A DNA stretch of 64,000 nucleotides from Nitrospirota bacterium (GTDB lineage Bacteria; Nitrospirota; Thermodesulfovibrionia; Thermodesulfovibrionales; Dissulfurispiraceae): contig CAWBMP010000004.1 of NCBI GenBank assembly GCA_963790025.1, positions 160,001-224,000 of the forward strand. Direction: 5' to 3'. The notes beneath the pieces were generated by a model. The model searched no databases, had not been told where the DNA came from, and saw only the letters and a list, made by a program, of their open reading frames with translations. Position 1 is the first letter of the stretch, and each line of letters opens with the position of its first letter. This document shows positions 17,671 to 64,000 of this stretch, piece by piece. The translations under genes and the position numbers were made by a program.

Positions 17671-18681
17671 TTATCCGGCAGAGCGCCTGTCGATATTCAT
17701 AGTCTCTATCAGGCCGCTGATTTCAGTATGTGATAGCCAATGGTCGTTTTTATCGCTCCTGTAAAAAAAGCCTTCAACCATTCTCGGATATTTGGAGTAG
17801 CCGAAATGTTTGTTGTCATGGAAACTGAATTGGGGCAGAATGACGTACACATCGCCCATATCAACAGTATTCCTTCCCTCATCTTCGGAAATAAGCGATT
17901 CGTGCAGTTTTTCACCCGGCCTGATGCCGATAAACTCACATCCGGCATCAGGGCAGAGCGCCTTTACAATATCGGTGATTTTTGTGCTCGGTATCTTGGG
18001 CACAAATACCTCTCCGCCTACACTGTCCCTGGCAGCCCTGCAGACCAGGTCCACTGCCTGCGAAAGCGTTATCCAGAACCGTGTCATACGTTCGTCCGTA
18101 ACCGGGAACTTTTTTCCGCCCTTGTTTAATAAGTTGATATAGAGCGGTATAACACTGCCCCGGCTGCCGACCACATTACCATATCTTACTACGGAAAAAG
18201 TCGTATCTTTGGCCCCAACATATGCGTTGCCCGCGACGAACAATTTTTCCATAGCGAGTTTAGTTGCGCCGTATAAATTGATCGGGCTGACCGCCTTATC
18301 CGTAGAGAGCGCTATCACCTTTTTAACGCCTTTATCTATGGCGACTTCGATGATGTTCTGTGCCCCCAGAACATTCGTCTTTATCGCTTCAAAGGGATTA
18401 TATTCCGCCGCGGGCACCTGCTTGATCGCAGCGGCATGAATAACGTAATCGACCCCTTCGAAAGCCCTGCATAAACGGCCCCTGTCCCTGACATCACCGA
18501 GAAAATAACGTACAGGATAGTTGGATTCAGGGAAATATTTTGACATTTCAAATTGCTTGAATTCATCTCTGCTGAATATAATGACTTTCCGGGGTTTATA
18601 ATTATTTACAAGGTATTCGGTAAATTTTTTTCCAAAAGACCCGGTCCCGCCGGTAATAAGTATTATTTTGTCATTGAACAT
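17671..18681 (-). CDS. pseB: UDP-GlcNAc 4,6-dehydratase (inverting)
   Basis: ITGGTGSFG, SRDEFKQ, KQVPAAEYNP, STDKA, RYGNVVGSRGS; ATG 18681 behind AAGGAG. Confidence 0.95.
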   Translation of the reverse strand: MFNDKIILITGGTGSFGKKFTEYLVNNYKPRKVIIFSRDEFKQFEMSKYFPESNYPVRYFLGDVRDRGRLCRAFEGVDYVIHAAAIKQVPAAEYNPFEAIKTNVLGAQNIIEVAIDKGVKKVIALSTDKAVSPINLYGATKLAMEKLFVAGNAYVGAKDTTFSVVRYGNVVGSRGSVIPLYINLLNKGGKKFPVTDERMTRFWITLSQAVDLVCRAARDSVGGEVFVPKIPSTKITDIVKALCPDAGCEFIGIRPGEKLHESLISEDEGRNTVDMGDVYVILPQFSFHDNKHFGYSKYPRMVEGFFYRSDKNDHWLSHTEISGLIETMNIDRRSAG

Positions 18682-19012
18682 GTGAATCTCCTTGCAATCG
18701 CATTTGGAACTGGAATAACTTGAGTTTTTAAGCAATAATTATACCCAGGCGCCAACATTTCTTATCGCCTTGTATTTTCGGCTTATTCTTTTGATTTATT
18801 TGGCGGAAGCACATATTTTCAATTCGCAAAGGGAAATTTTTTCCTGTCAACAAATTGACTATATGAACTGCCCCCGGCATTTCTTAGAAATAACTCTGAG
18901 GAAAAGCATCAGCGTGCTTATGCTGAATCTGTTGTATAATATTTCTTTCATAATAAATAAATATCCGTCACAAAATACCGGGAAGTGACTATCCGAAGAT
19001 TTGGAATCTTTT

Positions 19013-46797: not shown

Positions 46798-47997
46798 TTA
46801 TTTAGATAAGATGTACCCTCTGTTCTCCTTCAGCATCTTGAAAATAACACGGCAAAGATGACGACCAAGCGCACGTAGTGCCTGGTTATGTTTCTTGCCT
46901 TCAGCTCTTTTTTTCTCATAATATTGTTGAGACTGCGGAACTTGTTTTCGGTGCCGATCTACGGCAACCATCATTGCGGCCTTAGCCCGAGTATTAACCT
47001 GCGTTGGTGGTTTTGATCCTTTTTGCTTGCCTGAACTATTGTCAAGATTCGCCATCCCAATATACAGAGCCAGACTTGCTTCGCTGCCAAAGCGCTCGAT
47101 AGTTCCAATCTCTCCGGCGAGTTCAGATGTACAAATGGAACCGAATCCTGGAATGGTTGCGAGCGTTTGCGCAATATCCGAGCCGTGTGCAACACCCTCC
47201 ATCTTTGCTTCAAGTGATTTTATCTTGGCATGGAGTTCCATCACGCGGATTGCATCTTCCTGGATCATTTCACCGACCCACTCGACGTCGTGACTAAACT
47301 GTGCTGTTTTCTGCCATTCAACAATAACAGAGGCATATTTCTTACCAATGCCCGGGATCTTGCGGATAGTTGTTTCCCGCATGCGTGCAAGCGTGCGAAG
47401 GTCATCCGTGCTGGTCAGAAATCCAAGAAACCACATATTGTCGGCCTCACCGGTAATCTCCAGAAGTCCCGGACATACAGCGTGAAGATCGGCCTGTAGG
47501 TTGTTTACTACCCGTACTCGCTCATCGACCAAACGACGCCGGCGCCGTGATAGCCGCTTTAGAATGTCGTTGTCCCGCGGCGTTTTGCGTACCTCCTGCA
47601 GCACATCCTTGGCTATCGGCAGATGATCTCGAAGCTGAAAAAGCTCCAGTCCTTTCCTTGCGTCGATTGCATCGGTCTTCGCGGCACCGGGGAATATCTC
47701 CTTGAATCGAGCAAGCTTGAGATTGTTGATATTGAAGAGGCGATAATTGCGGGCTCGAACGAGCGTGTCCAGCGGACGTGCGTAGCCGTTGAAGCCCTCC
47801 ATTGCTACGGCAACGGGACAACTAAACCTTTGCTCCTGCTTCTCGATGCGACAGAAGAATTGCCGGAACCCTTCAGGTTCATGCACGATTGAGAATTCAT
47901 CGAGGACTTCACCGCTGGATAGGCCGATTGCAACGTTGTGACTGCGGCAGCCAATATCGACGCTTACACGCAGTTCGAGGGGATCATCTTTTTTCAT
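46798..47997 (-). CDS. IS110 family DEDD transposase / bridge recombinase
   Basis: VSVDIG, AMEG, KTDAIDA (DEDD); TIPGFG, EIGTIERF, NSSGK (catalytic Ser region), ALGRHL; AAGGAG RBS. Confidence 0.95.
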   Translation of the reverse strand: MKKDDPLELRVSVDIGCRSHNVAIGLSSGEVLDEFSIVHEPEGFRQFFCRIEKQEQRFSCPVAVAMEGFNGYARPLDTLVRARNYRLFNINNLKLARFKEIFPGAAKTDAIDARKGLELFQLRDHLPIAKDVLQEVRKTPRDNDILKRLSRRRRRLVDERVRVVNNLQADLHAVCPGLLEITGEADNMWFLGFLTSTDDLRTLARMRETTIRKIPGIGKKYASVIVEWQKTAQFSHDVEWVGEMIQEDAIRVMELHAKIKSLEAKMEGVAHGSDIAQTLATIPGFGSICTSELAGEIGTIERFGSEASLALYIGMANLDNSSGKQKGSKPPTQVNTRAKAAMMVAVDRHRKQVPQSQQYYEKKRAEGKKHNQALRALGRHLCRVIFKMLKENRGYILSK

Positions 47998-49975: not shown

Positions 49976-50290
49976 AAAATACCCGCGCGTGGACCGAAAG
50001 TCAATTGTGAGCATTTCCGGTTATACTCTATCGCATATGCAGGTCAACCTCTGGTGCGGTGTGCTGTGAGGACTCTGCCCTGAGGAACAATTTCACTTTA
50101 CGCTTTAACCATCGAGCAAGGAATGCAATTGAATTTTAAAATTTACTGACGGTTTTGGAGATGCCCCTTTCAAATGGTCATTCGATGGTAGCATGTTATT
50201 GATAAATCAGGATAATCATAAGTGGAAAAAAGACCCGGAACGGTTACTGCTGAGTGATATAACTCATTAATAAATAAAAGAAAGAAAGAA

Positions 50291-50362
<72 letters not shown>

Positions 50363-50444
50363 GATTGGAAGTCAGGCTTTTAATTTAACTAAAAGAACCA
50401 CATTTTTTCAAGGGCACAGGCTGCAAAAACTCAAACCCAACGCT

Positions 50445-51809
50445 TCAACGTTCAATCAGCTTTCGAGAAAGGTCACGGGCGAAATCCGCAAGGGTCTCGT
50501 CACGCGCGCCCATGATTGCATAACTGTCCCATTCAAAAGACCGCCTTAATATAATTTCCCTGCTCTCTGCCACCTCTACGGATTTCCCACGCTGGCGTAT
50601 GCCCACGGCAAGGTCATTGCTCGATATGTCTTTGCTCACGGTCCCGCCGGCATAAAAGATTGGCAGCAGTATAAGATGGTCCCCGGAGCGGAGATTTTCA
50701 GCAAAAGCCCCTATATACTCTGTCTTCATCATACGCGTCGGCGCAAATCCGTGAGGCTGGAATATATAGCAGATACGCTCGCGCACTTTCTGAACGGTAC
50801 CCATAAAAGATACTATCTTATGCGGGTTGTGCGCATAATCGTCAATAACAAGCCGCCTTCCGTCATCAAGATGTATATCAAACCGCCGTTCGATGCCGCT
50901 GAATTCAACCAGAGCGCCGGCGATATCCTGAGATGAAATGCCGCTTTCCCTGAGCAGCGCGATGCAGGAAAGTGCATTGTAAAGATTATATTTCCCCGGA
51001 ATGGAGAGTCTGAAATCAGTCCCGTTCAGCGAGAAGGTTGTGCTGAAAGGCCGCAAATCAACAGCTTCAGCACGGTATGCGGAAGGGGTCCCGATGGAGA
51101 AACATATCGCATGCCGTATGGGAATTTGCATTAGATACACGTCATCAGCGTTTATTACATTCATACCGGAGGTATTTCCGCCAAGGGCTTCGAACATTGC
51201 CGAGGTCTTTTCCACTGAATGGTGGTCCAGATCAAGATTCAATATTATCGAATGCTCAGGTCTATAATTTATTATTGTCCCGTCAGATTCGCATGCTTCT
51301 ATTATGAGGCGTTCCGAGTCCCCTGTAATTGCATTGCCGGGGTTATGCTCTGTCCTGAACTGTTTCACCCTTCCGCCGCCTATGAAATTCGGTCGCAGCC
51401 CGAGGCGCTGCATGATAAATGCAAGCATTCCCGCAGTGGTCGATTTCCCGCTGGTCCCTGCAACTGCTATGGTATTGTATTCGGTTATCAGTCTTGCAAG
51501 GTATTCAGGCCTTGTTTCTATCGGGATGCCGAGAAGTTTTGCTTTAATCACTTCGGGCCGATCAGCTTCCACAGCAGTGCTGAAAACGGCAAAATCAAAG
51601 GAGCTGTCGATGCCGCTGCCGTCCTGGGGAACTATGGCGATATTTTTTGCTTTCAGGAGTTGACAGACCGGATGTGCCGGATTACTGTCAAAAGACCTGT
51701 CGGAGCCGACTACTATATGGCCTTTCTCAGCCATGAAACTCGCAATCGCTGAAACACCGCTGCCGCCGATGCCGGAGAAGAATATTTTTAAAGGCCTGTT
51801 TTCCATCAT
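50445..51809 (-). CDS. MurC/Mpl-like Mur ligase
   Basis: GIGGSG, AVAGTSGKSTT, EACESD, RRF, DDYAHNP, FQPH. Confidence 0.88.
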   Translation of the reverse strand: MMENRPLKIFFSGIGGSGVSAIASFMAEKGHIVVGSDRSFDSNPAHPVCQLLKAKNIAIVPQDGSGIDSSFDFAVFSTAVEADRPEVIKAKLLGIPIETRPEYLARLITEYNTIAVAGTSGKSTTAGMLAFIMQRLGLRPNFIGGGRVKQFRTEHNPGNAITGDSERLIIEACESDGTIINYRPEHSIILNLDLDHHSVEKTSAMFEALGGNTSGMNVINADDVYLMQIPIRHAICFSIGTPSAYRAEAVDLRPFSTTFSLNGTDFRLSIPGKYNLYNALSCIALLRESGISSQDIAGALVEFSGIERRFDIHLDDGRRLVIDDYAHNPHKIVSFMGTVQKVRERICYIFQPHGFAPTRMMKTEYIGAFAENLRSGDHLILLPIFYAGGTVSKDISSNDLAVGIRQRGKSVEVAESREIILRRSFEWDSYAIMGARDETLADFARDLSRKLIER

Positions 51810-51837
51810 GCTGCCGACTTAATTATAACAAATAATA

Positions 51838-52021
51838 AGTGTAATGCAGGATATATCCCTGAAGCGAATCGCGGAGATTTGGTAACAGTTCTCGGCGAAG
51901 GGAGCGTTAAGCAGTCGCAATGTCCGAGCCCGGAGGGCGAGTTTTGCGACTGTAGCAAACAAGCCGTTATAACTGTCAAGACGGAGCGTCTGAGCGTAAG
52001 AGATATATCCTGCATTGCACT
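51838..52021. repeat. 184-bp palindromic MITE-like element
   Basis: 20-bp terminal IR with one mismatch (AGTGTAATGCAGGATATATC / GATATATCCTGCATTGCACT); nested ACAGTT/AACTGT and CAGTCGCAA/TTGCGACTG. Confidence 0.75.
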
Positions 52022-52062
52022 ATCCGAATTGCACTTATTCTCAAAATGTTAAAATAAACGAT

Positions 52063-53772
52063 ATGTCCGGCTACACTGGCAAGAGTTTGCGCGTCAATCT
52101 CACCACAAAGGAAATCTCAGTTTATGACACGCCCCCTGCCCTCTGCGATGAATTCCTGGGCGGCAGGGGCATGGGTGTTGCAATGATCACCGACCGCATA
52201 ACCCAACCCTGCGATTCTCCTGAAATGCCCCTGATCTTTGCCACCGGGCCGCTTGTCGGCACCGCTTCACCAACTTCAGGCCGAATGTCGGTTGTTTCAC
52301 GATCTCCCCTCACCGGCACCGTATTTGACTGTTCAGTAGGCGGACTCTTCGGCACTCAACTTAAAAAAGCCGGTTTCGATGTCCTTGAAGTAACAGGCTC
52401 TGCCGAACGATGGACTCTTTTGAATATCTGCAATGGCAGCGTTGCTTTCGAAGATGCCTCCCGACTAGCTGGAGAGAACACCTCGGAGGTGGGCAAAAAG
52501 ATTCATAGCAAAGGCTCATATGCTGCAATAGGTATCGCCGGAGAAAAAAAGGTCCGGTTTGCATCGATTGTTTTTGACGGGCATTACTGCGCCGGGCGCG
52601 GCGGCCTCGGTGCTGTGATGGGGGCAAAAAAGTTGAAGGCAATAGCAGTACGGGGTGAAGGGAGAATCCCTGTTGCCGATGAGGAAGGACTAAGGCAGGC
52701 ACGTGAAGACATAATGAGGCTTTTAAGGACCTCACCTGCCATATTCGGAGAATTCGGCCTATCGGAATTCGGCACTGCTGCCCTCGTCGATTTGATACAT
52801 GCAAGGAGAATGGAACCTACGGATAATTTCAAAAAAACGGTGTTCCCTTATGCATCAAATTACTCCGGGTATGCCATGAAAACACATTATAGTGCAAAAA
52901 AAACCGGATGTGCCGGCTGCCCCATCCTCTGTAAGAAAGTCGGATCAGGCGGAGAGGTCATCCCTGAATATGAAAGCGTTTCGCATTTCGGAGCCTTGAA
53001 CGGCTGCGGCGACATGGAAAGCATTGTCAAGGCAAATCGCATTTGCAATGAATTCGGTCTGGATACTATTACCGCTGCCTCCACCATTGCCTGTTATTCC
53101 GAAATTCACAATAAGCGACTTTCTCCGAAAGAGATGCTGGATTTGCTTGTACTCATAGGCTCCAGGGGACCGGGCTTAGGCGATGCGCTTGCCGAAGGTT
53201 CGCTGCGGTATGCCACGTCGATGGGCCATCCGGACTTAAGCATGTCTGTAAAGGGTCTTGAACTGCCTGCCTATGACCCGAGGGGCGCTTACGGCATGGC
53301 CCTGGCATACTCTACTTCTAACAGGGGAGGATGCCACCTGAGGGCCTATCCGATCAGCCACGAGATACTGAGAAAACCGGTTGCTACAGACAGGTTCTCC
53401 TTTGAAGGCAAGGCACGCATTATTTCGATAGCCGAGGACCTGAACGCCGTCATCGATTCCCTTACGGCGTGCAAATTTGTTTTTTTTGCCGCGAGCCTCG
53501 AAGAATATGCAAACGCTGTCAATGCGGTCACCGGCAAGGAATTTAGTGTTCAGTCACTTCTTAAAACCGGTAAACGCATATGGGACCTCGAACACAGCTT
53601 AAACGAAAAAAACGGATTTAACCAAACTCACGACGATCTGCCACAGCGCTTTTTCTCTGAGGAGGGGACTTCAAGCCCTAATATTTCAATATCTCCGATT
53701 GACCGTGATGCCTTCCTGAAGGCAAAGGAACGCTATTATAAAATCAGAGGCTATGGAAAAACTCATCAATAA
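52063..53772 (+). CDS. aor: Aldehyde:ferredoxin oxidoreductase family (W/Mo-pterin)
   Basis: LGGRG, SPLTG, AGRGGLGAVMGAKKLKA, CAGCPILC, GLD, AYDPRG, RGGCH; ATG 52063. Confidence 0.92.
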   Translation: MSGYTGKSLRVNLTTKEISVYDTPPALCDEFLGGRGMGVAMITDRITQPCDSPEMPLIFATGPLVGTASPTSGRMSVVSRSPLTGTVFDCSVGGLFGTQLKKAGFDVLEVTGSAERWTLLNICNGSVAFEDASRLAGENTSEVGKKIHSKGSYAAIGIAGEKKVRFASIVFDGHYCAGRGGLGAVMGAKKLKAIAVRGEGRIPVADEEGLRQAREDIMRLLRTSPAIFGEFGLSEFGTAALVDLIHARRMEPTDNFKKTVFPYASNYSGYAMKTHYSAKKTGCAGCPILCKKVGSGGEVIPEYESVSHFGALNGCGDMESIVKANRICNEFGLDTITAASTIACYSEIHNKRLSPKEMLDLLVLIGSRGPGLGDALAEGSLRYATSMGHPDLSMSVKGLELPAYDPRGAYGMALAYSTSNRGGCHLRAYPISHEILRKPVATDRFSFEGKARIISIAEDLNAVIDSLTACKFVFFAASLEEYANAVNAVTGKEFSVQSLLKTGKRIWDLEHSLNEKNGFNQTHDDLPQRFFSEEGTSSPNISISPIDRDAFLKAKERYYKIRGYGKTHQ

Positions 53773-54958
53773 ATACATAAATAAGCTCGAACAGCAGGGG
53801 CTTGCCCTCAAAGATAACATAACGTTCCTTGCGCTCGATGACGATCTGGTCTCAAACAGGACAATCGATGGTGAAACATTGATGCTCTCCAAACTCTTCT
53901 CGTTAATGAACATCAATGTCGTGCTCTTTGCCGAGCCCTCGGAACCTTACAAGAGTATCATACGGGAAATCACAAAACATGACGCACTCTGCCGGACACA
54001 GTCCAAGCTGGTACCGATGGATTGCGAGACGCGGACGTTCTTTCACGATATTCCTATAGTCAATGATTTTTCTCCTGAAGCGATTGCCGCTGCGCTTTCC
54101 CGCCGCAAATCGGCAATCATCAAAGACAGAGGGATTGTGACCTATGGGGTGGTAACTCCTGAACAGGCTTTTGTTTCATTAAGTTCCACCTGCTTTTCGA
54201 CGTTTGTAAAATATTTCTACGACAGCCTCGTCTATAGTGAAAAGTGCGCTGCCGGGAAGCTGCCCCCTGACGATGACTTCATAAAATCTTTCGGGACCAT
54301 TTCATCACATTCTGAAATGCGTCAGCCTGCCGTCTCAAACGCCTCACTCTCGCCGGGACCGCCTTTAAACGGCGATGACGTCGTTGCAATGCTTTCGGAG
54401 GCCGGCAGGGCAGTGGTAGGGCACCGGCTCGTAGACTCGTTTTTCGGGAATATATCATATATGTTCAATAATATCATCTATATAAGTGAGACGGGCAGTT
54501 CGCTGGACGAACTCGAATGCTGCATCGATGCCGTTCCTCTGGACGGGACATCTTCGGTAGGCATCACCGCATCATCCGAATTGTCGGCCCACAAAAAAAT
54601 TTATCAGGAAACCGGAAACACCGCTGTATTGCATGGTCACCCAAAGTTCTCCGTGATCATGTCGATGCGCTGCGGGAAGGAAGGCTGCGACAGGTCTTTG
54701 TGCCACAAAGTGTGTAAAGAGAAACGTTATATTTCGGAAACGCCCATTGTCTCAGGAGAAATAGGCACAGGACAAACCGGGCTCATGCATACCGTGCCGG
54801 CCGCAATCAAGGAGGGGAAAGGCGCCATAGTGTACGGGCACGGTGTTTTTGCCGCCGGACAGGGCAGTTTTCAAGGACCTTTCTCGATGCTTATGGAGAT
54901 AGAGAATACGTGCAAGAGCGAATATTTTAATGCCGTAAAAAACTGCATGGAGATATAG
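53753..54958 (+). CDS. Class II aldolase/adducin family protein with an extra N-terminal half
   Basis: GNIS, SSELSAH, LHGHP, GHGVF in the C-terminal half. Confidence 0.82.
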   Translation: MEKLINKYINKLEQQGLALKDNITFLALDDDLVSNRTIDGETLMLSKLFSLMNINVVLFAEPSEPYKSIIREITKHDALCRTQSKLVPMDCETRTFFHDIPIVNDFSPEAIAAALSRRKSAIIKDRGIVTYGVVTPEQAFVSLSSTCFSTFVKYFYDSLVYSEKCAAGKLPPDDDFIKSFGTISSHSEMRQPAVSNASLSPGPPLNGDDVVAMLSEAGRAVVGHRLVDSFFGNISYMFNNIIYISETGSSLDELECCIDAVPLDGTSSVGITASSELSAHKKIYQETGNTAVLHGHPKFSVIMSMRCGKEGCDRSLCHKVCKEKRYISETPIVSGEIGTGQTGLMHTVPAAIKEGKGAIVYGHGVFAAGQGSFQGPFSMLMEIENTCKSEYFNAVKNCMEI

Positions 54959-55027
54959 AGGTGTAATATTATGGGCGGTACAAATCGAGCTCATAAAATC
55001 GGGTGTAAGAGTTTTGATCGTCCTGAA

Positions 55028-55047
55028 AAAAGACCGGACGGTCTTTT
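55028..55047 (+). terminator. Possible intrinsic terminator
   Basis: AAAAGACC-GGAC-GGTCTTTT, about 70 bp after the aldolase stop. Confidence 0.45.
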
Positions 55048-55322
55048 CACAGTGGGGGGACAGGAGGAGAAGAATATCAGGACCAAGCCTGCCGGAGAGT
55101 CACCGATGTACTGAAGAAGGTGTTTGAGAAGTAGGGTCGTTTGCAAAATTGATTGTCTGCTGAGTTCGGCAGGAAGTCCGCAAAATCATTGGATTTAAAT
55201 TCTGATTATTACTCAAAATAGCCATGATTTCATCCGAGGAGGCTCATTTGGTTTAGAAAAAAATTGATACAGACTACACAGTGGCATAAGCACAATGCTA
55301 TATGGTTAAATAAAAATACGTG

Positions 55323-57455
55323 ATGGGAAAGTCTTCCAATAAAAAGAAAAAAACTGAAGCGGTGTCCCGCATCGGAAGAGACAGCAAGGTATCATCAAAT
55401 GAGCAACACAGAGATGTCTCCCGATGCGATGGGAACATAATAAAATACAGCAATGTCAGATATGGTATTGCCTCGGCTGTTTCGCTAATAACCTTTATCG
55501 TCTATCTTTCCTCTCTGCATAATGAGTTTGTATCGTGGGATGACAACCATTATGTTTACGAAAACCCGCATATTCATTCATTGAATGCAGACTTTTTCAG
55601 GTGGGCATTTTCCGAATTCTATGCTGGAAACTGGCATCCGCTAACCTGGGTATCCCATGCACTGGATTATGCCGTATGGGGATTGAATCCCCTGGGGCAC
55701 CATCTGACCAATAATATTCTGCATGCTGTCAACACCTTTGTTGTAGTAATACTTGCAACAACACTTTTAGAGGCATGGAAGAGGAAGGCGGAAAAAAGTG
55801 GTCAAAAGATTTTTTTCAATGCGCAGGCGATTCTTATTGCCGGTGGGATAACAGGGTTATTATTCGGCCTTCATCCTGTGCATGTGGAATCAGTGGCATG
55901 GGTTTCCGAAAGAAAAGATCTCTTATGCGCCCTATTTTACTTACTGGCAATTGTTCAGTATGCCAAATACGCTAATATCGGGGGTGCCGAAACAATTCAA
56001 GAGAATTCCAAAACACGCTTTCTGAACAAATATTACCTCCTCGTCCTGGCGTTTTTTGTTCTTGCTCTGTTAAGCAAGCCGATGGCGGTCAGTCTTCCTG
56101 CAGTTCTGCTCATATTAGACTGGTATCCATTTCAAAGAATCCGGTCTATAAAATCGTTTATGTCTGCATTTGTCGAGAAAATGCCGCTTATCGTATTAAG
56201 TATCATCTCTTCAATACTGACAGTTCTGGCACAAAAGGCAGGAGGGGCAATACAATCCACTGAGATAATACCATTTTCATCGCGGGTTTCTGTGGCTGCT
56301 GAATCCCTCCTGGGTTACCTTTTGAAAATGGCATTGCCTGTGAATATGGTCCCGTTTTATCCATATCCTGAGAATGTTTCGCCGTTTTCGGCAGGGTATC
56401 TTTTATCGATCGTTCTTGTGCTTGGGATTACAGCGACCTGCATTGTCATGTCAAAAAGACAGAAGTTATGGTTATCAGTCTGGGGCTACTATGTTATCAC
56501 CCTGGTCCCTGTCCTCGGAATCGTTCAGGTGGGAAGCCAGTCAATGGCAGACAGGTATACTTATTTGCCGAGTCTTGGCCCATTCCTTTTGGCAGGTTTG
56601 CTTTCTGCATGGTGCATTGAAAAGACAAATATTCGGCGGAAGCAAGCCCAGATCGTTAAGCTTATTGGCGGCATTGCAGCCATTTTGGTATCAGTTTGCC
56701 TTTCATTTATAACTTTTAGGCAAGTGGCGATATGGAAAGACAGCGTCACCCTGTGGACTTACGTTATCGAGAAAGAACCAAATGCCCCTGTAGCACATAA
56801 CAATCTCGGCCTTATCTATCAAAATCAAAATATGCCTGATGAGGCCGAAAAGGAATTTCTGACTGCTCTCAAACTAAAACCGGATTACGCTCTGGCACAC
56901 AATAATCTCGGACTCGTCTATAAAACCCACAACATGCTTGACAAGGCGATGGAGCAATATCTAATCGCCACTAAGCTGAAGCCTGACGACGCTGAGGCGC
57001 ATAGCAATCTTGGCATCTCATATCAAGCCTGCAATATGCCTGATAAGGCTGAAGAAGAATTTCTGACTGCCGTTAAACTAAAACCCGATGATGCTGCGCT
57101 CCACTTCAATCTCGGCCTCTTTTATAAATCACGCAATATGCCTGACAAGGCTATGGAGCACTATGCGATTGCCATTAAACTAAAACCCGATTTAGCAGAA
57201 GCGCATAATAATCTTGGCGGCATTTATCTGGTCCTCAAGATGCCCGATAAGGCCGAACAAGAATTTCAGACTGCTCTTATATTAAAGCCAGATTTGGCGG
57301 AAGCGCATTATAGTCTTGGTTTTGCGTACTACAATACGGGACAGATGGAAAAGGCGCAAAGGGAATTAGCCAGAGGATTAGAAATAAAGCCGACTAACCA
57401 ACAGGCTCAGCAATTGTTAAAAATAATAACAGAATATCTGAAAGCAAAAGATTAA
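55323..57455 (+). CDS. TMTC-like GT-C membrane glycosyltransferase with C-terminal TPRs
   Basis: WDD, WHPL, HLTN.ILH, HPVHVESVAWVSERKD, ADRYTYLP; multiple TM segments; about six TPRs. Confidence 0.85.
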   Translation: MGKSSNKKKKTEAVSRIGRDSKVSSNEQHRDVSRCDGNIIKYSNVRYGIASAVSLITFIVYLSSLHNEFVSWDDNHYVYENPHIHSLNADFFRWAFSEFYAGNWHPLTWVSHALDYAVWGLNPLGHHLTNNILHAVNTFVVVILATTLLEAWKRKAEKSGQKIFFNAQAILIAGGITGLLFGLHPVHVESVAWVSERKDLLCALFYLLAIVQYAKYANIGGAETIQENSKTRFLNKYYLLVLAFFVLALLSKPMAVSLPAVLLILDWYPFQRIRSIKSFMSAFVEKMPLIVLSIISSILTVLAQKAGGAIQSTEIIPFSSRVSVAAESLLGYLLKMALPVNMVPFYPYPENVSPFSAGYLLSIVLVLGITATCIVMSKRQKLWLSVWGYYVITLVPVLGIVQVGSQSMADRYTYLPSLGPFLLAGLLSAWCIEKTNIRRKQAQIVKLIGGIAAILVSVCLSFITFRQVAIWKDSVTLWTYVIEKEPNAPVAHNNLGLIYQNQNMPDEAEKEFLTALKLKPDYALAHNNLGLVYKTHNMLDKAMEQYLIATKLKPDDAEAHSNLGISYQACNMPDKAEEEFLTAVKLKPDDAALHFNLGLFYKSRNMPDKAMEHYAIAIKLKPDLAEAHNNLGGIYLVLKMPDKAEQEFQTALILKPDLAEAHYSLGFAYYNTGQMEKAQRELARGLEIKPTNQQAQQLLKIITEYLKAKD

Positions 57456-57554
57456 AAGCAAATGCTTACATGATACTCGGGAAGAAACTTGGCCCTCCTG
57501 CCTATCCGATCTCTCTAACCTTTTTATATCATATTTATCGGTAGGAGGAAGTTA

Positions 57555-58388
57555 TTAAGTACCTGCGAGGCTATCCTGCGAGTGCGGATTTCGTTCGTTA
57601 ACAAAACCCATGATTGTTTGCCACCAGTGCAGGTCTACCCTGTTCGGCCAATCGTTATGCCCGGCCCCTTTAATCACCCACATCGCTTTGTTTCCGTCCA
57701 GTGATTGGTATAATGTATTTGCATGCCTTATAGGGATTATCTCATCCCGTTCTGCCCCTGCCACCGCAATTCTTCCCATGTAACTTTTGAGGTTCCTCAT
57801 ACTGTCATATTTGTCTTTCATAAACAATCGCACCGGCAACCATGGAAATTTAGATTGAGCAACGGACAGAAGCGAATCCCAAGGCGTTATGAGCACAACT
57901 CCGTCGATCTTTATAGACATCTTATTAACTACTGCTGCCACAACTCCGCAGCCGAGTGATTCTCCCAAGAGAAAAATCGGGGCGCCATATTGCTGGTAGG
58001 CCAGGCGTATTGTTTCTTTTGCATCGCTAACAAATGAATTCTCTCCCAATTCTCCTGCTCTTGCCCCATATCCTGGATATTCGGCAAGTATGACGAGATA
58101 CCCCAACTGCCCCATTGCCGTCAAATAATATGCCCTATCTGCCGCCGTGCCGGCGTTCCCATGAAAAACTATGATGGTGCCCTTCAGATTTTTGACAGCT
58201 TGATTGCCGATGAACCCTTTATAGTTAACGGGTCCAGAGGGCCAAAATTGCATATTTTTGAAGACGAGCTCGTCCTGGGAGGGTAACGATGAGTTTGGAT
58301 AATAAAGCAGCTTATGTTGAAGATCACAGCCCGACATAGCCATAAAGATATTCATTAGTATGAATATATATTTTCCAATGTTATTCAA
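57555..58388 (-). CDS. Alpha/beta hydrolase (ABHD-like), possible lipoprotein
   Basis: FHGNAG, EYPGYG, GESLG, DEIIP, GAGHND. Confidence 0.9.
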   Translation of the reverse strand: MNNIGKYIFILMNIFMAMSGCDLQHKLLYYPNSSLPSQDELVFKNMQFWPSGPVNYKGFIGNQAVKNLKGTIIVFHGNAGTAADRAYYLTAMGQLGYLVILAEYPGYGARAGELGENSFVSDAKETIRLAYQQYGAPIFLLGESLGCGVVAAVVNKMSIKIDGVVLITPWDSLLSVAQSKFPWLPVRLFMKDKYDSMRNLKSYMGRIAVAGAERDEIIPIRHANTLYQSLDGNKAMWVIKGAGHNDWPNRVDLHWWQTIMGFVNERNPHSQDSLAGT

Positions 58389-58416
58389 AACAGAGCCGGT
58401 CTCTTCGGTTTGTTCT

Positions 58417-59253
58417 TCATTGTTTGAAAAATTCTTTTATTCTCTCCAGGAAAGACGTGCGGATTTTGGCCCTGAGGAAGAGGTCCCCGGGTTCGCCGCC
58501 TTTCTTGCCCTCCTGACCGAGACCCTTGAGTTTTATCTTCTGTCCGTCTCTTATCCCGGGCGGGACCGTGATCAGCAAATCCCTGGGTTGGCCCCGTTTC
58601 TTGTATAGGTATCGGACCTTGCCGCCGGCCACTGCTTCTTTGCGGGCAATCCCGATGACATCATATAAATCTTTTCCCCTTGTCGGCAGTTCCAGGCCCA
58701 ACCGGCGGGCAGCTAATCCCGTAAAGAAGTCCAGAATCCTGGCTATGATTACCGAAAGCAAAGGATGCAATTGCCGCATCTGATCAGGAGAAGTCTTCAA
58801 GCGGTCCTGATAAATTTTTCTCATAGGACCGTAAAAGTAGAAACCACTACCGGAAAATCCGGGGTCCTTGAATTCAAAGGTCCTGTAGCGGGAACCGTAA
58901 AAATTGTTCCGGCTAAAAATATCTTCCGGCCTGCTAAAACCGAATGCCTTGCTGAACTCTTCGAAAACCTGACCAATATCGGAACCGCGGAAAATATCCT
59001 GATCAGTATGTGACTGTCTGAACTGGTCCCTGGCGAAGGGGCCATACGCTTGTCTCAGCGCATCATACTCTTTCTTCTTCACAGGATTTGAAAGGACGGC
59101 ATAGGCCTCATTGATTGCCTTCATCATCTCCTCGCCTCCAGGATTCCTGTCGGGGTGATACCGGAAGGCGAGGTTCCGATAAGCTTTTTTTATCTCGCCG
59201 GGGCCTGCATCTTCTCCCACACCGAGAGTCTTGTAATAGTCCTTTTGGTTCAT
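58417..59253 (-). CDS. DnaJ-class chaperone (J domain and C-terminal domain, CbpA-like)
   Basis: DYYKTLGV, YHPDRN, INEAYAVL, VPPG...KLKGLG...GDL; ATG 59253. Confidence 0.9.
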   Translation of the reverse strand: MNQKDYYKTLGVGEDAGPGEIKKAYRNLAFRYHPDRNPGGEEMMKAINEAYAVLSNPVKKKEYDALRQAYGPFARDQFRQSHTDQDIFRGSDIGQVFEEFSKAFGFSRPEDIFSRNNFYGSRYRTFEFKDPGFSGSGFYFYGPMRKIYQDRLKTSPDQMRQLHPLLSVIIARILDFFTGLAARRLGLELPTRGKDLYDVIGIARKEAVAGGKVRYLYKKRGQPRDLLITVPPGIRDGQKIKLKGLGQEGKKGGEPGDLFLRAKIRTSFLERIKEFFKQ

Positions 59254-59255
59254 CG

Positions 59256-59951
59256 CTATCGCTTGATCTCGATCCGGTGGAACGCTTCGGCGAGTTCGCA
59301 CTCAGCGCCTTCAGCCATAGAGCAGGACCACTCTCTCACCCAAGCCTCCAGATCTGCCACTTTGAGCTCTTTTACCTGGCTTTCATGGCAGCGCAGCGCC
59401 GCAACTTTCAGATCGAAGGTCGCCGATATATCGGAGCGGTAATTAATGTCTTCCGAACCAAAGAAGAGCATCTCGCCGACCTTGTGAGGTCCGAGGCCTT
59501 CCTCCAGCAGTTCCGGATAGGACAGGTGGTCCCGCGCTAAGGGGAAGACGGCGTCGAGTGTCGCCTGCCCCACAATCCTGTGGTCCCGGTGCCAGATGTA
59601 CCGGTGGTAAGGGTCCGAGGTGACAACTGTTTCTGGACGATATGTACGAATTGTACGCACGATCATTTTCCTGAATTCGGAAGTGTCTTCCAGCCCCTGA
59701 TCAGGAATCCGGAGAAAGACGACTTCCCGTACGCCCAGGACTCTTGCAGCAGCTTCCTGTTCTCTCTCTCTTATTTGGGCCAGGAGCCCGGGTTGCATCG
59801 TCTCGTCCGATGTTCCCTTCTCCCCGCTCGTACAGACAACATATACTACCTGTTTGCCTTCCAGGACCCAGCGCGCCACCGTTCCGGCGACGCCAAATTC
59901 GGCATCGTCAGGATGCGCTATGATGACGAGTATATCAGCAGAAGCTGCCAT
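59256..59951 (-). CDS. PIG-L family deacetylase (MshB/BshB-like)
   Basis: AHPDDAEFG, TSGEKG, HRDH, HESQ; ATG 59951. Confidence 0.9.
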   Translation of the reverse strand: MAASADILVIIAHPDDAEFGVAGTVARWVLEGKQVVYVVCTSGEKGTSDETMQPGLLAQIREREQEAAARVLGVREVVFLRIPDQGLEDTSEFRKMIVRTIRTYRPETVVTSDPYHRYIWHRDHRIVGQATLDAVFPLARDHLSYPELLEEGLGPHKVGEMLFFGSEDINYRSDISATFDLKVAALRCHESQVKELKVADLEAWVREWSCSMAEGAECELAEAFHRIEIKR

Positions 59952-59973
59952 ATTACAACTCCCTGTACCATTT

Positions 59974-61257
59974 TTATGCAACACAAGGCTGGAGGGCAGT
60001 CGTGTACTCCTGCACGACGGCGGATGCAATGTCAGCCCAGCCATAACTTAAAACAGAAGAACGTATTTCATCACGGGACAAGACGCAGTTAGTCGGGTCT
60101 ACGATGAATTTTCGGATTGCCGATGCGAAGGAATGCGGGCTCGGCGTGTCAACAAGAAGTCCCGTCTTTCCGTCCCTTATCAAGGTTTCCATTGCACCTA
60201 CGCGCGCGGCAATAACAGGCGTTCCGCAGGCAAGCGCTTCGAGTGCGACGAGGCCGAAACTTTCGTAGTAAGACGGTACGACGACTACGTCGGCGGCGCT
60301 GTAATACAAAGGGAGAAGATCATGACTGACCCTGCCCTGAAATCTCACTATATCATCTACAGAGGCACGGCGGGCGAGCCGCGAAAGTTCAGCGGATGCA
60401 TGCGCCTGCGGACCGTCACCGCCGACTATCAAAAACATCAGTCCACGGTGAGAGCGCAGATGTGCGGCCGCAGATACTAGTCTGTGGAGCCCCTTGACAG
60501 GGGCGAACCTGCCAACGTAAAGAACAAGAAACCGGGTATTATGAAGTCCCAGTTCCTTTCGCGCCAGATCTTTCGCTACAGGCCGGAACCGTTCGAGGTC
60601 AACGCCGCAGGGGACCATGCCGATCTTTTCTCGCGGCACCCCATAGTATCTCACAAGCAGGTCCTTCTCCCTATCAGTTGCGGCCATAATCCGGTCGCTT
60701 TTACGGGCCAGCCTCTTTTCGGCAATCAGACGCAGGGCCGGTTCTCTCTCCTGGCTGCAGGCAACACGCTTTGCGATGCCGGTCGTGTGGAACATCACGA
60801 CATGAGGGATGTCCCACCTGTTTTGGGCAAGAAACCCCACTTCGCCGGATATCCAATAGTGGCTGTGGATGAGATCATAGCACACATTGTTTCTCGTAAT
60901 ATACTTCTCGAGCGATTGAAACGTTTCCGGCAGATGTCTGTACAGCATGCTCTTTGTGACATCCCCCTTGCACCCTATGCCCAGATGAATAAGGCGCACA
61001 TTCCCGGACATAAACATCTTAGTATCCATTATGCCGGCGCCGGCGCACGTATAAATGTCGACGCTGTGGCCCGCTCTTCCAAGTTCCCGCGAGAGTTCAC
61101 GGATATATACGCTCATGCCGCCCGTGTCCTCTGTCCCGAGTTCGCCGAGCGGACTAGAATGGATGCTGAGAGCAGCGATCCTCAATGGCCGCACATTAGA
61201 TAACTCCCCGTGTCCTTTCAAACCGGCTTCTGAAACAACAATGGAAGTTGGAGTCAT
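59974..61257 (-). CDS. GT4 glycosyltransferase, MshA-like
   Basis: SIHSSPL...DTGGMSVY, HSHYWISG, YVGRFAPVKG, PSYYESFGLVALEALACGTPV. Confidence 0.88.
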   Translation of the reverse strand: MTPTSIVVSEAGLKGHGELSNVRPLRIAALSIHSSPLGELGTEDTGGMSVYIRELSRELGRAGHSVDIYTCAGAGIMDTKMFMSGNVRLIHLGIGCKGDVTKSMLYRHLPETFQSLEKYITRNNVCYDLIHSHYWISGEVGFLAQNRWDIPHVVMFHTTGIAKRVACSQEREPALRLIAEKRLARKSDRIMAATDREKDLLVRYYGVPREKIGMVPCGVDLERFRPVAKDLARKELGLHNTRFLVLYVGRFAPVKGLHRLVSAAAHLRSHRGLMFLIVGGDGPQAHASAELSRLARRASVDDIVRFQGRVSHDLLPLYYSAADVVVVPSYYESFGLVALEALACGTPVIAARVGAMETLIRDGKTGLLVDTPSPHSFASAIRKFIVDPTNCVLSRDEIRSSVLSYGWADIASAVVQEYTTALQPCVA

Positions 61258-62261
61258 TTCAGAAGTGCCTCGCAGTGAAGCAGTCTCACCGGCCGACCGC
61301 CGAGGCGTCCTTTGTATGCCTCACCGCCCCGAAGAAAATTAAACTTTTTCCTGTTTCTTTTTATGCTTTCCCGTATGCAGAAGACCTTGCTCAGGAGTCC
61401 CACACTGAGATGCTCATAGCGCCGGTCATAGCCGTTATTGTAAAGGTAAACCGTCGAGTGATAGTCGAAACACATCGTTGAGGCTACGGGCTTATCGTTC
61501 AAGTCTAAAAAAAATAGACTTAAGAGCCCGGCCTCGGCCATTTCGACTGCTGCAGACCTGAAAAATAACTCGACATCGCCTGACATGAACCCGGCCTTAT
61601 CCTTCCTATTGGACCGGAAAAGAGCTATGAAAGTGTCCAACGCATGTGCAACATCCTTCTTGTCCTCGATAACGCGCAGCCCGACATGACCGGCACTCTC
61701 CAACCGCCTGAGCTTCCGGCGCGTCTCGTGCCGCTCCCTTCCCGACAGGAGGTCGAGATATCCTTCCCACGTGCCGGCCAGGTCCATTTCATAAAGCACA
61801 TCAACGTGGTCCCAGGAGACATCGCAACCGAGGAACGCAGAGTATGCCTGGAGGCATAAGATGATGGTTGAATCGGCACGGACGCGTCCCGCATCGAAAC
61901 GACTTATGCCCTCGCCTCTGAGGTAGTCAAAAAGGGTCGACAAAAATTCCCTCTCCCTTGAGGGCGCAACGATGAAATCAGTGTAATCGATCAGGTCGCT
62001 GTCGCCGATGAGGTGAGCTGTGTGTCCTCTGACCTCAAGCGGCGCCACACCGAGGACCTCATCGTGCTGTCTCACAACGCATAGGTGAGTTTCCAGGCCT
62101 TGTGCGAAATACGACCGCCAGGTACCAAGCAATGGGGGAAGCATAAACAAACAATCCCACTTGAGCTGGCTCCCTGCAACCTGCCAGTAGCTCTCAAGAT
62201 CGTACAGAGGCTCGATGCTTACCCACCCTCCCGGTGCTGCAATTTCAGCCTTATCTTTCAT
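61254..62261 (-). CDS. GNAT family protein (CelD/BcsL, Fem-like fold)
   Basis: DYTDF, TWEGYL..LS...RRKLRRL, YNNGYD...SVG, FLRGGEAYK; ATG 62261. Confidence 0.85.
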   Translation of the reverse strand: MKDKAEIAAPGGWVSIEPLYDLESYWQVAGSQLKWDCLFMLPPLLGTWRSYFAQGLETHLCVVRQHDEVLGVAPLEVRGHTAHLIGDSDLIDYTDFIVAPSREREFLSTLFDYLRGEGISRFDAGRVRADSTIILCLQAYSAFLGCDVSWDHVDVLYEMDLAGTWEGYLDLLSGRERHETRRKLRRLESAGHVGLRVIEDKKDVAHALDTFIALFRSNRKDKAGFMSGDVELFFRSAAVEMAEAGLLSLFFLDLNDKPVASTMCFDYHSTVYLYNNGYDRRYEHLSVGLLSKVFCIRESIKRNRKKFNFLRGGEAYKGRLGGRPVRLLHCEALLK

Positions 62262-63522
62262 ACCACCGCCACCCTTCCTGAGTATCATCGACTTCAATGT
62301 TCACCCGCTTCAGGCAATCACGGACCGCATCGGCCTCATGCCACTGGTTATTTTTCCTGAATAGAGCTCTTAATGCAAGTAATTCTTCCACGAGTGGCGC
62401 GAGACACTCGTAACTGCTTTTCGGCGCTGAGGACAGGCGCATTCCTAAAAGAACTATGAATTCGTGAAAGAGATCTCTTGCCTGGGAGATGACCTCCGGT
62501 CCCTCCTTATCCTGCTGGGCCTGCCAGATTAGCCTATCGAGGGCCAAAACAGCGTTGGCAGCATCCCGGGCATCTTCGTCGAGGCCTTTGTGGAACCCAA
62601 CTTCGACGGCATGCACGGCGCCCCAGAAGTCTGTCTCATCAGACGAGGACCGAGCACTCAACACGCTGTTCACTCCCGCCTCAAAAGTCTGCGACTTCCC
62701 GGGACCTCCCGGCGATTTGAGTGCTCGGCTCCCTTCTCTGTCTGAAAAGGCACTGAGCGGGAATTGTTCTCCCCTGACGAATGTCCTCTCATATGTACCA
62801 TGTCTCAAAGTCACAGAGCCGATACCTTTTATCGAGATTTCCTTCCTGTCAATATCTATGATGCAGGCCGTATGTTCGTCGATACCAAGGATACTCATAT
62901 CCTCCGGCAGCATTGATTCGAGCAACCTGAACCGGCCCTCTCCCATAAAGCAGAAACGCGTGTCGTGTGTCCCTCCCTCGGCGTTATTCCAGTGAGGGAC
63001 CACAACCGTATTCAGCCCGAAATGACCTAGTATCTTGAGGCCTTCAGTCCAATGTGGCTCCTGACCGACCTTGTAAATCTCGTATACAGGCAGGGTAAAA
63101 CTCCCTGCTGTTAGTGCCGCCGCGCTGGCGGCGACAAGACATGCGCCTTTTTCGATCCGCCGCTGCAGTATCCCTGGTATGGGAGTCCCCTGCCACTGCC
63201 TAATGGCATATGTCGGGCTACCGGGTCCGACCAGGACATAATCCGCCTCTTTCAGGGTGCGAAAGGCCTGCTCTCTTTCAAGGGCCGGTATGTCTTTCGA
63301 CTTGTACGATATGACTGCCATTGGATGGCCGACACTCACTCGGAAATATTCTACCGCCCGTTCGGACAACTGGTCGGCGTTCAACTGGAACCCCGCAGGA
63401 GTATCGAGAAAGAACGCTTTGGGAGAAATGCCGAGTCGTGCAAGTATGTCCTTGTGGACCTCGACCATTGTGGCTGTGAGTTCACCTGAGCCCATGAGAA
63501 CAATCAAACCCTTTTTATGCAT
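62251..63522 (-). CDS. Peptidase S51/cyanophycinase-like domain fused to a CysRS-type C-terminal anticodon-binding domain
   Basis: GSGE, GPGSP, AASAAA, PHWNN, GIDEHTA; C-terminus LLALRALFRKNNQWHEADAVRDCLKRVNIEVDDTQEGWRW. Confidence 0.8.
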   Translation of the reverse strand: MHKKGLIVLMGSGELTATMVEVHKDILARLGISPKAFFLDTPAGFQLNADQLSERAVEYFRVSVGHPMAVISYKSKDIPALEREQAFRTLKEADYVLVGPGSPTYAIRQWQGTPIPGILQRRIEKGACLVAASAAALTAGSFTLPVYEIYKVGQEPHWTEGLKILGHFGLNTVVVPHWNNAEGGTHDTRFCFMGEGRFRLLESMLPEDMSILGIDEHTACIIDIDRKEISIKGIGSVTLRHGTYERTFVRGEQFPLSAFSDREGSRALKSPGGPGKSQTFEAGVNSVLSARSSSDETDFWGAVHAVEVGFHKGLDEDARDAANAVLALDRLIWQAQQDKEGPEVISQARDLFHEFIVLLGMRLSSAPKSSYECLAPLVEELLALRALFRKNNQWHEADAVRDCLKRVNIEVDDTQEGWRWYER

Positions 63523-63598
63523 ATTCTAATTTGAGCGTGTTTCATGGCCGTTGTCAAGTGCCGGGACGCATCCTCAGTAGGGCAGCCGAAACCCGAGT

Positions 63599-64000
63599 TT
63601 ATTTTACAATCCACTGCGTGCCGCAGATATACTGGAAATCGCATGTCGGGCACACCTTCTTACTGTCGGCTGCCTGTCCGAAGGGAACCAGAGGATCTAT
63701 TATTTCGTTGAGTGCCTTGAAGATCAGTATCTTCAGTGGTGCAAACATTTCTGCCGGCGATGAACCATCAAATAGGGAAAGTTCAACATCTCTACTTATC
63801 ATCGAGCGGCCCAAAAGCAGAAAAAGCGCATCGAGCTTCTCTATCGTTCTTTTTTTCTTTTCAGTATAAAGCAAGAGGTAAAATGGAAGCTGGATACTAC
63901 CTATAGCCTTGTCCCAAGTCTCTCTTTTGCCGATGTCGAGTTTTTCCATATCAATCTTCAGATAATTTGGGCTGGAGCCTGTCTTGTAATCGACTATGAC
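63599..64000 (-). CDS. C-terminus of a PD-(D/E)XK nuclease (AddB/RecB-like), partial
   Basis: Frame open to the window end: VIVDYKTG, QLPFY, CPTCDFQYIC. Confidence 0.85.
   Translation of the reverse strand, partial: VIVDYKTGSSPNYLKIDMEKLDIGKRETWDKAIGSIQLPFYLLLYTEKKKRTIEKLDALFLLLGRSMISRDVELSLFDGSSPAEMFAPLKILIFKALNEIIDPLVPFGQAADSKKVCPTCDFQYICGTQWIVK

Follow-up and report, generated by a model that had tools for sequence, protein, structure and literature searches.

Organization of the A-B-C-D operon

In a Nitrospirota bacterium of the family Dissulfurispiraceae (assembly GCA_963790025.1), the stretch of 64,000 nucleotides analysed here (contig CAWBMP010000004.1, positions 160,001 to 224,000 of the forward strand; hereafter the window, whose own numbering is used for positions) carries near its right-hand end four consecutive minus-strand genes, designated A to D. 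These encode, respectively, a protein of the S51 peptidase family fused to a tail of the cysteinyl-tRNA synthetase (CysRS) type, a Fem-fold double GNAT, an MshA-like glycosyltransferase of family GT4 and a PIG-L/LmbE-family de-N-acetylase (Table 1). The original prediction, made from the sequence of this region, had read them as a mycothiol-like operon that lacks the CysRS paralogue MshC and might obtain its amino acid from Cys-tRNA, and the present analysis deals with the four proteins, their linkage in related genomes and the pathway that they may form.

The tight coupling of the genes is borne out by the layout of their open reading frames (ORFs), which overlap or abut on the minus strand. 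Specifically, the stop codon of B and the start codon of C share an ATGA overlap, and the A/B and C/D junctions overlap by ORF coordinates; with the more likely internal methionine starts of B and D, placed where the alignments of homologues begin, A and B overlap by 11 nt and a gap of about 22 nt separates C from D. Window ORFs of at least 150 aa were scanned for Pfam domains.

Protein A: an S51 domain joined to a CysRS-type tail

The fusion postulated for protein A is recovered by Pfam, by the cysS model TIGR00435 and by structural comparison with Foldseek. Specifically, residues 7-223 match Peptidase_S51 (E 6e-6; 26.5 bits against a Pfam cut-off of 23.9), and residues 306-421 match positions 346-464 of the 466 positions of TIGR00435 (E 3e-6), the CysS_C domain being weak when taken alone (E 0.004, below its cut-off). 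The class I catalytic domain of CysRS is not found in A by the match to the cysS model, and the N-terminal 265 residues are of the S51 type according to Pfam and Foldseek. The AlphaFold2 model of A has a predicted local distance difference test score (pLDDT) of 90.2, and its S51 part matches the structure 6nqc in Foldseek with E 2e-14 and a template modelling (TM) score of 0.83 on the target; peptidase E and cyanophycinase are also found, the S51 targets spanning TM scores of 0.71-0.83. In the profile search, the motifs SAAA, PHWNN and DEHTA of A line up with motifs of 6nqc, and the putative triad Ser133-His177-Glu216 is kept in a set of 60 diverse A homologues (S133 in 59, H177 in 60 and E216 in 58). 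Relative to the S51 peptidases (peptidase E, cyanophycinase, 6nqc), with which it shares the fold and the Ser-His-Glu triad, A differs in its tRNA-synthetase tail, in the extra invariant blocks PVYEIYK and EGGTHDTR and in its residence in a biosynthetic operon.

A profile of 14 A homologues, searched against the sequences of the PDB, finds 6nqc with its S51 part and CysRS chains only with its tail (8qhp, 3tqo, 1li5, 6ujd and 3sp1), at E 2.5e-8 for 8qhp and 2e-6 for residues 337-460 of the E. coli enzyme (1li5/1u0b); Foldseek, in turn, matches the tail to the CysRS-tRNA(Cys) complex 1u0b_B (E 5e-4). When A residues are paired with those of E. coli CysRS through this profile alignment, and their conservation is read over the 60 diverse homologues, R385 (R423 in CysRS), D398 (D436) and R401 (R439) are invariant (60/60 each), R389 (R427) is arginine in 57 and lysine in 3, and W394 (W432) is tryptophan in 33, phenylalanine in 16 and tyrosine in 9. 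According to the available text of PMC12684709, Arg427 and Asp436 are hydrogen-bonded to G34 of tRNA(Cys), Trp432 is the residue on which this base stacks and Arg423 belongs to a water network, and the available part of PMC13449415 names Arg427, Trp432, Asp436 and Arg439 as the anticodon-binding residues to alter for anticodon switching. The conservation of the five aligned contact residues suggests that the tail of A has kept the requirements for reading at least G34, and on this alignment it is classed as a predicted anticodon-binding region with the G34 contacts retained. Compared with CysRS, A keeps the helical-bundle and anticodon-binding region, including the residues aligned with R423, R427, W432, D436 and R439, but the whole catalytic Rossmann part is missing. 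MshC presents the converse case, as it keeps the CysRS catalytic core and has no tail.

Of the four proteins, A is the best conserved across the related loci described below, with a median identity of 55%; B reaches 43% and C 48%, and the 65% of D comes from fewer loci. A prediction of a complex of A with B scored 0.00 and has no bearing either way. Only two longer proteins came up as fused forms of A, one with a low-complexity extension unlike B and one with a major facilitator superfamily domain, and both were set aside as not meaningful. In an Acidobacteriota locus (L068, 6348-9239), the A frame is open for 963 codons, of which the first 540 or so have no Pfam match and are maybe a mere upstream extension; separately, three representatives of the A family with 345-360 aa (P0125, P0128 and P0131) match the S51 part only and may be tail-less variants or fragments.

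Source databases name A by its domains only, and its protein-atlas clusters carry automatic labels such as "Cysteinyl-tRNA synthetase family protein". The available part of a review of aminoacyl-tRNA synthetase paralogues lists only CysRS* and MshC under CysRS (PMC9437257). No paper on an S51-CysRS-tail protein or on a tRNA-dependent mycothiol-like pathway was found in a literature search that lay largely outside subscription journals.

Protein B: a Fem-fold double GNAT

Protein B matches PF13480 (E 6e-27), and among 40 members of its family FemAB_like is detected in 37, FemAB in 11 and LPG_synthase_C in 7. Its AlphaFold2 model (pLDDT 92.6) has as nearest folds in Foldseek the aminoacyl-tRNA-dependent enzymes Sbb17 and Sba18, followed by FemA, FemX and MprF; the match to Sbb17 has E 2e-12, and one structure of the Sbb17/Sba18 type was solved with streptothrisamine. 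TM scores on the target are 0.54-0.67 for aminoacyl-tRNA-dependent enzymes versus 0.40-0.48 for acetyl-CoA tandem GNATs, and MshD is absent from the 50 fold neighbours of B that were listed. By the fold of this predicted model and the sequence signal of its family, B is assigned as a Fem-like double GNAT, as the original prediction had it.

The family has an invariant basic helix (R189, R194, K195 and R197) and an invariant Y328-K329 pair which, by analogy, resemble the tRNA-binding helix and the catalytic Lys305 that the available text of PMC12945691 describes for FemX. The same portion of that source reports that Orf11 aminoacylates the amino sugar of streptothrisamine using Gly-tRNA. Orf11, Sbb17 and Sba18, from streptothricin-type (BD-12) pathways, are akin to B as Fem-fold enzymes, move an aminoacyl group from tRNA to an amino-sugar amine (PMC12945691, available text) and are its best structural matches; unlike B, they belong to actinomycete antibiotic clusters, use Gly-tRNA and have no partner with an anticodon-binding domain, and their sequence similarity to B is undetectable by HMMER against PDB sequences. 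FemX, FemA, FemB and MprF, an aminoacyl-phosphatidylglycerol synthase (aaPGS), share with B the double-GNAT fold, the basic helix and the C-terminal aromatic-Lys motif, but their acceptors are peptidoglycan precursors or lipids, whereas B sits in a sugar-inositol operon. The sole NCBIfam match of B is a weak one to the BspF crotonyltransferase (E 7e-8); in the search of PDB sequences, the single sequence of B finds nothing, and the four matches of its profile (E 0.11-2.3) are unrelated proteins.

Proteins C and D: glycosyltransferase and deacetylase

The best NCBIfam model for protein C is that of MshA (TIGR03449), matched over its full length with 336.1 bits (cut-off 462.5), versus 105.4 bits on the BshA model (cut-off 273.7), and the motifs HSSPL, DTGGMSVY and HSHYW, from which C had been called an MshA-like GT4, are present in its translation. 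The best PDB sequences for C are MshA of C. glutamicum (3c48, E 4e-69) and Tll1590 (6kih, E 1e-66), the latter named only "Tll1590 protein" in the PDB and taken by us to be a sucrose-phosphate synthase. Residues K102, Y134 and H157-T158 of C align with K78, Y110 and H133-T134 of MshA (in the numbering of 3c48_A minus 20 leading residues, presumed to be a tag), which are presumably contacts of the inositol phosphate. Membrane features are predicted for neither C nor B in the Pfam results.

The assignment of protein D to the PIG-L deacetylases holds, with a match to PF02585 at E 1e-33. Its scores are 101.4 bits on BshB1 (cut-off 182.5) and 46.5 bits on MshB (TIGR03445, cut-off 224), and its PDB matches comprise a diacetylchitobiose deacetylase (E 2e-33), BshB (E 4e-16) and MshB (E 5e-6). 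Judged by these scores, D is nearer to BshB1 and the archaeal diacetylchitobiose deacetylases than to MshB, and it is not classed as an MshB equivalog.

Gene linkage and distribution

The family of A comprises 7645 proteins at E <= 0.001 among 8000 candidates scored. At 50% identity, 1477 clusters reach E <= 0.001, and 463 have values below 1e-30. Homologues of A were confirmed at at least 587 places in species-level genomes; the best 80 of these, taken with 8-kb flanks, form the set of related loci in which the window proteins were located by tblastn. The closest A homologues among the matches listed come from metagenome-assembled genomes of Nitrospirota/Thermodesulfovibrionia (71-76% identity).

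Neighbourhood conservation, which the original prediction had proposed as a check, is found across phyla: B, C and D all lie beside A in 39/80 loci, 37 of them collinear in the order A-B-C-D on one strand. Partial sets account for B and C in 11 loci (some cut by the contig end), B and D in 3, C and D in 1 (L009), B only in 3 and C only in 2, while none of the three is found beside A in 21 loci, in 12 of which the sequence ends before 4.2 kb past A. B follows A in 56/80 loci. The linkage of A, B, C and D is thus beyond chance, and its carriers are labelled Nitrospirota, Thermodesulfobacteriota/Desulfobacterales, Syntrophobacteraceae, Nitrospinaceae, Deferrisomatales and others. Moreover, an A homologue with 42% identity to the A of the window, when used as a query, retrieves relatives from Actinomadura, Micromonospora, Actinoplanes and others. 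In two loci on Streptomycetaceae plasmids (L081 and L083), the A homologue stands beside genes for DUF4331, tetratricopeptide repeat, "nickel transporter" and class F sortase proteins, with no sugar or inositol genes.

Recurrent neighbours of the operon

All ORFs of the related loci were clustered, annotated with Pfam and NCBIfam and counted by tblastn over the 80 loci. A pair of GFO/IDH/MocA oxidoreductases lies between A and B in 31/80 and 28/80 loci, respectively, with weak IolG likeness and a ThuA-like N-terminus on one of the two (for example, L014, 9517-12172); its presence suggests that the lineages concerned have a modified cyclitol or sugar. The window does not contain this pair, and in L013 and L025 it comes after A but B, C and D were not found, L025 ending about 4 kb past A. 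An inositol-phosphate synthase is present in 13/80 loci, and its short type reaches 409 bits with the mycothiol_INO1 model (cut-off 638). The other recurrent genes encode a histidine phosphatase (13/80), a HAD phosphatase (12/80), a GloB-like hydrolase of the metallo-beta-lactamase fold (13/80; best model hydroxyacylglutathione hydrolase, 84 bits, below the cut-off) and a fusion of glutaredoxin-like and thioredoxin-reductase-like (TrxR) parts (6/80; N-terminal mycoredoxin 76 bits, cut-off 89.5; TrxR 318 bits, cut-off 343). Taken together, the recurrent neighbours indicate that the acceptor is an inositol phosphate and that the product is a thiol served by redox and glyoxalase partners of its own.

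The operon lacks MshC, as had been claimed, and no ATP-grasp protein, CysRS core or other ATP-dependent ligase recurs among the neighbour clusters of the 80 loci. Specifically, MshC is found neither in the operon, nor among the window ORFs of at least 150 aa, nor in the recurrent neighbour clusters, and a BshC-like protein neither in the operon nor in those clusters; a CDP-alcohol phosphatidyltransferase or other lipid gene is likewise missing from the recurrent clusters. A gene with a PPDK_N (ATP-grasp) domain upstream of A in L010 and L013 was considered as a hidden ligase and dropped, since it occurs in 2/80 loci only.

The surroundings of the operon in the window hold no tRNA gene, and a scan of 60 of the 80 loci gave no tRNA-Cys gene. 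Riboswitches and T-box leaders were found neither at the operon in the window (50000-64000) nor at the operon in the 8 of the 80 loci scanned, and a scan for promoters and terminators was uninformative, with sites no more frequent than in shuffles. The closest related locus has a c-di-AMP riboswitch (L001, 136-286; 82.5 bits) some 2 kb upstream of its A homologue.

Proposed pathway

From the domain content, residue conservation and linkage of the genes, we infer every chemical step of a pathway in which proteins A to D would make a mycothiol-like cysteinyl-glucosaminyl-inositol, or a capped form of it, with the amino acid taken from Cys-tRNA(Cys) and with no ligase of the MshC/BshC type; the chances that this pathway exists as described are put at even. 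C would move N-acetylglucosamine (GlcNAc) from UDP-GlcNAc to inositol phosphate, as suggested by its likeness to MshA and by the inositol-phosphate synthase genes of the relatives; a phosphatase encoded elsewhere would then remove the phosphate, and D, judging from its family, would deacetylate the product and free the 2-amine. A would dock tRNA(Cys) by its CysRS-derived tail through the residues that align with the G34 contacts and, in the preferred version, its Ser133-His177-Glu216 triad would take the cysteinyl group as an acyl-enzyme and hand it over to the amine of glucosamine (GlcN). In S51 peptidases such as peptidase E, the acyl-enzyme carries one amino acid whose amine is free. This is the very chemistry required to accept an aminoacyl group from tRNA, which argues for A as a transferase, and an intact triad would be pointless on a mere adaptor; within the mycothiol-like model, a role of A as the cysteinyl transferase has about even odds. 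B would then cap the amine of cysteine in the place of MshD, with a donor that is probably also an aminoacyl-tRNA, as its fold suggests, and L009, with A, C and D and no B, fits B as an optional capping step. A farther-reaching proposal, put forward tentatively and thought unlikely, is that A founds a new class of aminoacyl-tRNA-dependent transferases, built on an S51 acyl-enzyme and a captured CysRS tail, and that A-B-C-D make the major low-molecular-weight thiol of sulfate reducers, Nitrospirota and related anaerobes.

Set beside the synthesis of mycothiol (Ino1, MshA, a phosphatase, MshB, MshC and MshD), the operon shares a GT4 enzyme closest to MshA, a PIG-L deacetylase and a two-domain GNAT (B) in the position of MshD, and related loci link it to a synthase of the mycothiol_INO1 type, phosphatases and a mycoredoxin-like partner. 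It differs in that MshC is missing from the operon and its recurrent neighbours, C and D lie below the equivalog cut-offs, B is of the Fem type (PF13480) and not MshD, and an S51-CysRS-tail protein is added; moreover, its hosts are Nitrospirota, Desulfobacterota and others, whereas the mshA-D genes are found only in Actinobacteria according to the available text of PMC6282198. The synthesis of bacillithiol (BshA, BshB and BshC) likewise consists of GlcNAc transfer, deacetylation and cysteine addition, and D scores higher on BshB1 than on MshB, but C fits the BshA model much less well (105 bits) than that of MshA (336 bits), the linked genes suggest inositol and not malate, and there is no BshC in the operon or among its recurrent neighbours. 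We infer that the operon would be a variant of the GlcN-cysteine thiol pathways that proceeds via tRNA.

Several observations weigh against the proposed pathway. Tll1590 is nearly as close to C as MshA is; neither C nor D reaches the trusted cut-off of its model (MshA for C, MshB/BshB for D); the position of W394 is only aromatic, not invariant; and genes of the kinds that encode the inositol-phosphate synthase, phosphatases, GloB-like hydrolase and reductase of the relatives are missing from the window. A stands alone, with unrelated genes around it, in 8 loci with full 8-kb flanks, and all four Actinomycetota records (±10 kb) have A without B, C and D and without any inositol gene. The fold of B, lastly, would allow B to be the only tRNA-dependent transferase, and the catalytic role of A would then be unexplained. 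Since A stands alone in Actinomycetota, the group that has mshA-D, its role cannot be limited to replacing an absent MshC; in these bacteria A may use GlcN-inositol from the housekeeping pathway or some other acceptor. The idea of a sugar-thiol made from Cys-tRNA without a ligase thus gains from the joint occurrence of the genes in several phyla, from the MshA likeness of C and the linked inositol-phosphate synthase of related loci, from the lack of a recurrent ligase in the neighbourhoods, from the G34-contact residues kept in the tail and from the Fem-like nature of B, and is narrowed by the solo occurrence of A in Actinomycetota.

Alternative explanations

The same pathway and product would result if B alone transferred cysteine from Cys-tRNA(Cys) to the GlcN amine, A selecting, delivering, proofreading or deacylating tRNA(Cys), a division of labour that we consider a minor yet serious possibility. 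It agrees with the nearest folds of B, which are aminoacyl-tRNA-dependent transferases including Sbb17 bound to streptothrisamine, with FemAB_like in 37/40 family members, with the invariant basic helix and Y-K motif, with the precedent of a Fem-like enzyme that aminoacylates an amino sugar (PMC12945691, available text) and with the place of B after A in 56/80 loci. For an adaptor, however, there would be no need to keep the triad in 58-60 of 60 homologues or to be more densely conserved than the other three proteins; moreover, A, C and D occur without B in L009, and A occurs solo in several phyla.

Other explanations abandon either the thiol or the tRNA. B, C and D might make a non-thiol GlcN-inositol compound, such as an aminoacylated osmolyte or a glycolipid of the GlcN-phosphatidylinositol type aminoacylated in the manner of MprF, with A assigned to a separate job on tRNA(Cys), e.g., trans-editing or deacylation of its mis-esterified form, which we hold to be improbable. 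GT4 and PIG-L enzymes form a general pair for GlcNAc transfer and deacetylation (PIG-A/PIG-L, aminoglycoside pathways), the fold of B is also like that of the MprF/aaPGS lipid aminoacylases, with LPG_synthase_C in 7/40 family members, A is found without B, C and D, and S51 enzymes are hydrolases. Still, A precedes B, C and D on the same strand in 37 loci from several phyla, which is hard to explain for unrelated functions, and the recurrent neighbours are of the thiol type (GloB-like hydrolase, mycoredoxin-like/TrxR fusion) and include no lipid gene, nor do the Pfam results give membrane features for C and B. An ordinary pathway of the mycothiol or bacillithiol type is, in our estimate, very improbable; in it, an ATP-dependent ligase would be encoded elsewhere in the genome, B would be an acyl-CoA N-acyltransferase in the role of MshD and A a peptidase with the thiol or its conjugates as substrates. 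It would be compatible with the extent of the ligase survey, which covers the 64-kb window and the ±8 kb flanks of the relatives, with the msh genes of actinomycetes, which are not clustered, and with the inclusion in PF13480 of an acyl-CoA enzyme, the BspF crotonyltransferase that B weakly matches. A plain peptidase, however, has no reason to carry a CysRS-type tail with conserved G34-contact residues, the fold of B is nearer to the tRNA-dependent enzymes than to the acetyl-CoA tandem GNATs, and no ligase recurs in the 80 neighbourhoods, whereas the synthase, the phosphatases and the redox partners do.

Other features of the window

Directly 3' of D lies gene E, whose DnaJ-like product has a J domain but, of the DnaJ C-terminal domain, no more than a short piece; it starts within a few bases of the D stop and has a homologue in 0/80 related loci, and is specific to the window and probably not part of the pathway. 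Gene F, which follows E and encodes an alpha/beta hydrolase with a lipoprotein-like N-terminus, has weak matches only (27-30% identity, opposite strand) in 4/80 loci and is taken as a window-specific addition whose membership in the pathway is doubtful. At the other end of the window, a long minus-strand cluster for sugar modification looks like one for the synthesis of nonulosonic acid (pseudaminic/legionaminic type); besides the genes of Table 1, it holds GNAT, HAD and methyltransferase genes and several ORFs without a Pfam match. Within its cytidylyltransferase-aminotransferase gene, ARAGORN reports a "tRNA-Asn" (anticodon ATT, 93 nt) that is probably a false positive, and the only convincing tRNA of the window is a tRNA-Val. 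Lastly, an aldehyde:ferredoxin oxidoreductase gene overlaps that of a class II aldolase-domain protein, and a transposase of the IS110 family is present.

Table 1. Coordinates of the operon genes, of the parts of protein A and of other features in the window.
Feature	Position	Strand	Basis or remark
Gene A, S51 hydrolase with CysRS-type tail, 423 aa	62251..63522	-	Pfam, NCBIfam, profile search of PDB sequences, AlphaFold2, Foldseek
A residues 1-265, S51 domain, putative triad Ser133-His177-Glu216	62728..63522	-	Foldseek, alignment
A residues 266-292, low-confidence linker	62647..62727	-	pLDDT <50 at residues 270-291; variable in homologue alignment
A residues 293-423, CysRS-type tail	62254..62646	-	Profile search, Foldseek
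Gene B, Fem-fold double GNAT, 347 aa	61254..62297	-	PF13480, Foldseek; start more likely Met13 at 62261
Gene C, MshA-like GT4 glycosyltransferase, 427 aa	59974..61257	-	TIGR03449, PDB sequence search
Gene D, PIG-L/LmbE-family de-N-acetylase, 262 aa	59256..60044	-	PF02585; start more likely Met32 at 59951
Gene E, DnaJ-like	58417..59301	-	DnaJ and DnaJ_C domains
Gene F, alpha/beta hydrolase	57555..58388	-	Hydrolase_4 / Abhydrolase_1
Nonulosonic-acid-like cluster	1-18735	-
NeuB	3348-4394	-	Nonulosonic-acid-like cluster
Second PIG-L	4965-5648	-	Nonulosonic-acid-like cluster
ATP-grasp	6281-7258	-	Nonulosonic-acid-like cluster
B12-radical SAM enzyme	8395-10074	-	Nonulosonic-acid-like cluster
Cytidylyltransferase-aminotransferase fusion	12113-14155	-	Nonulosonic-acid-like cluster
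DegT	16439-17641	-	Nonulosonic-acid-like cluster
PseB-like dehydratase	17671-18735	-	Nonulosonic-acid-like cluster
"tRNA-Asn"	12542-12634		ARAGORN; probable false positive
IS110-family transposase	46798-47997
tRNA-Val	50291-50362
Aldehyde:ferredoxin oxidoreductase and class II aldolase-domain genes	52015-54958

Significance

The main thiol redox buffers are known for some bacterial groups only, and comprise glutathione, mycothiol, bacillithiol and a few others. The operon described here suggests that, among the anaerobes active in sulfur and nitrogen cycling, many have another route to a compound resembling mycothiol. If the proposed pathway is true, it would represent a new way of making a cellular thiol, tied to the pool of charged tRNA(Cys), it would provide a function for a large and highly conserved protein family that is named only by its domains, and it would possibly reveal a new catalytic scaffold for tRNA-dependent biosynthesis.

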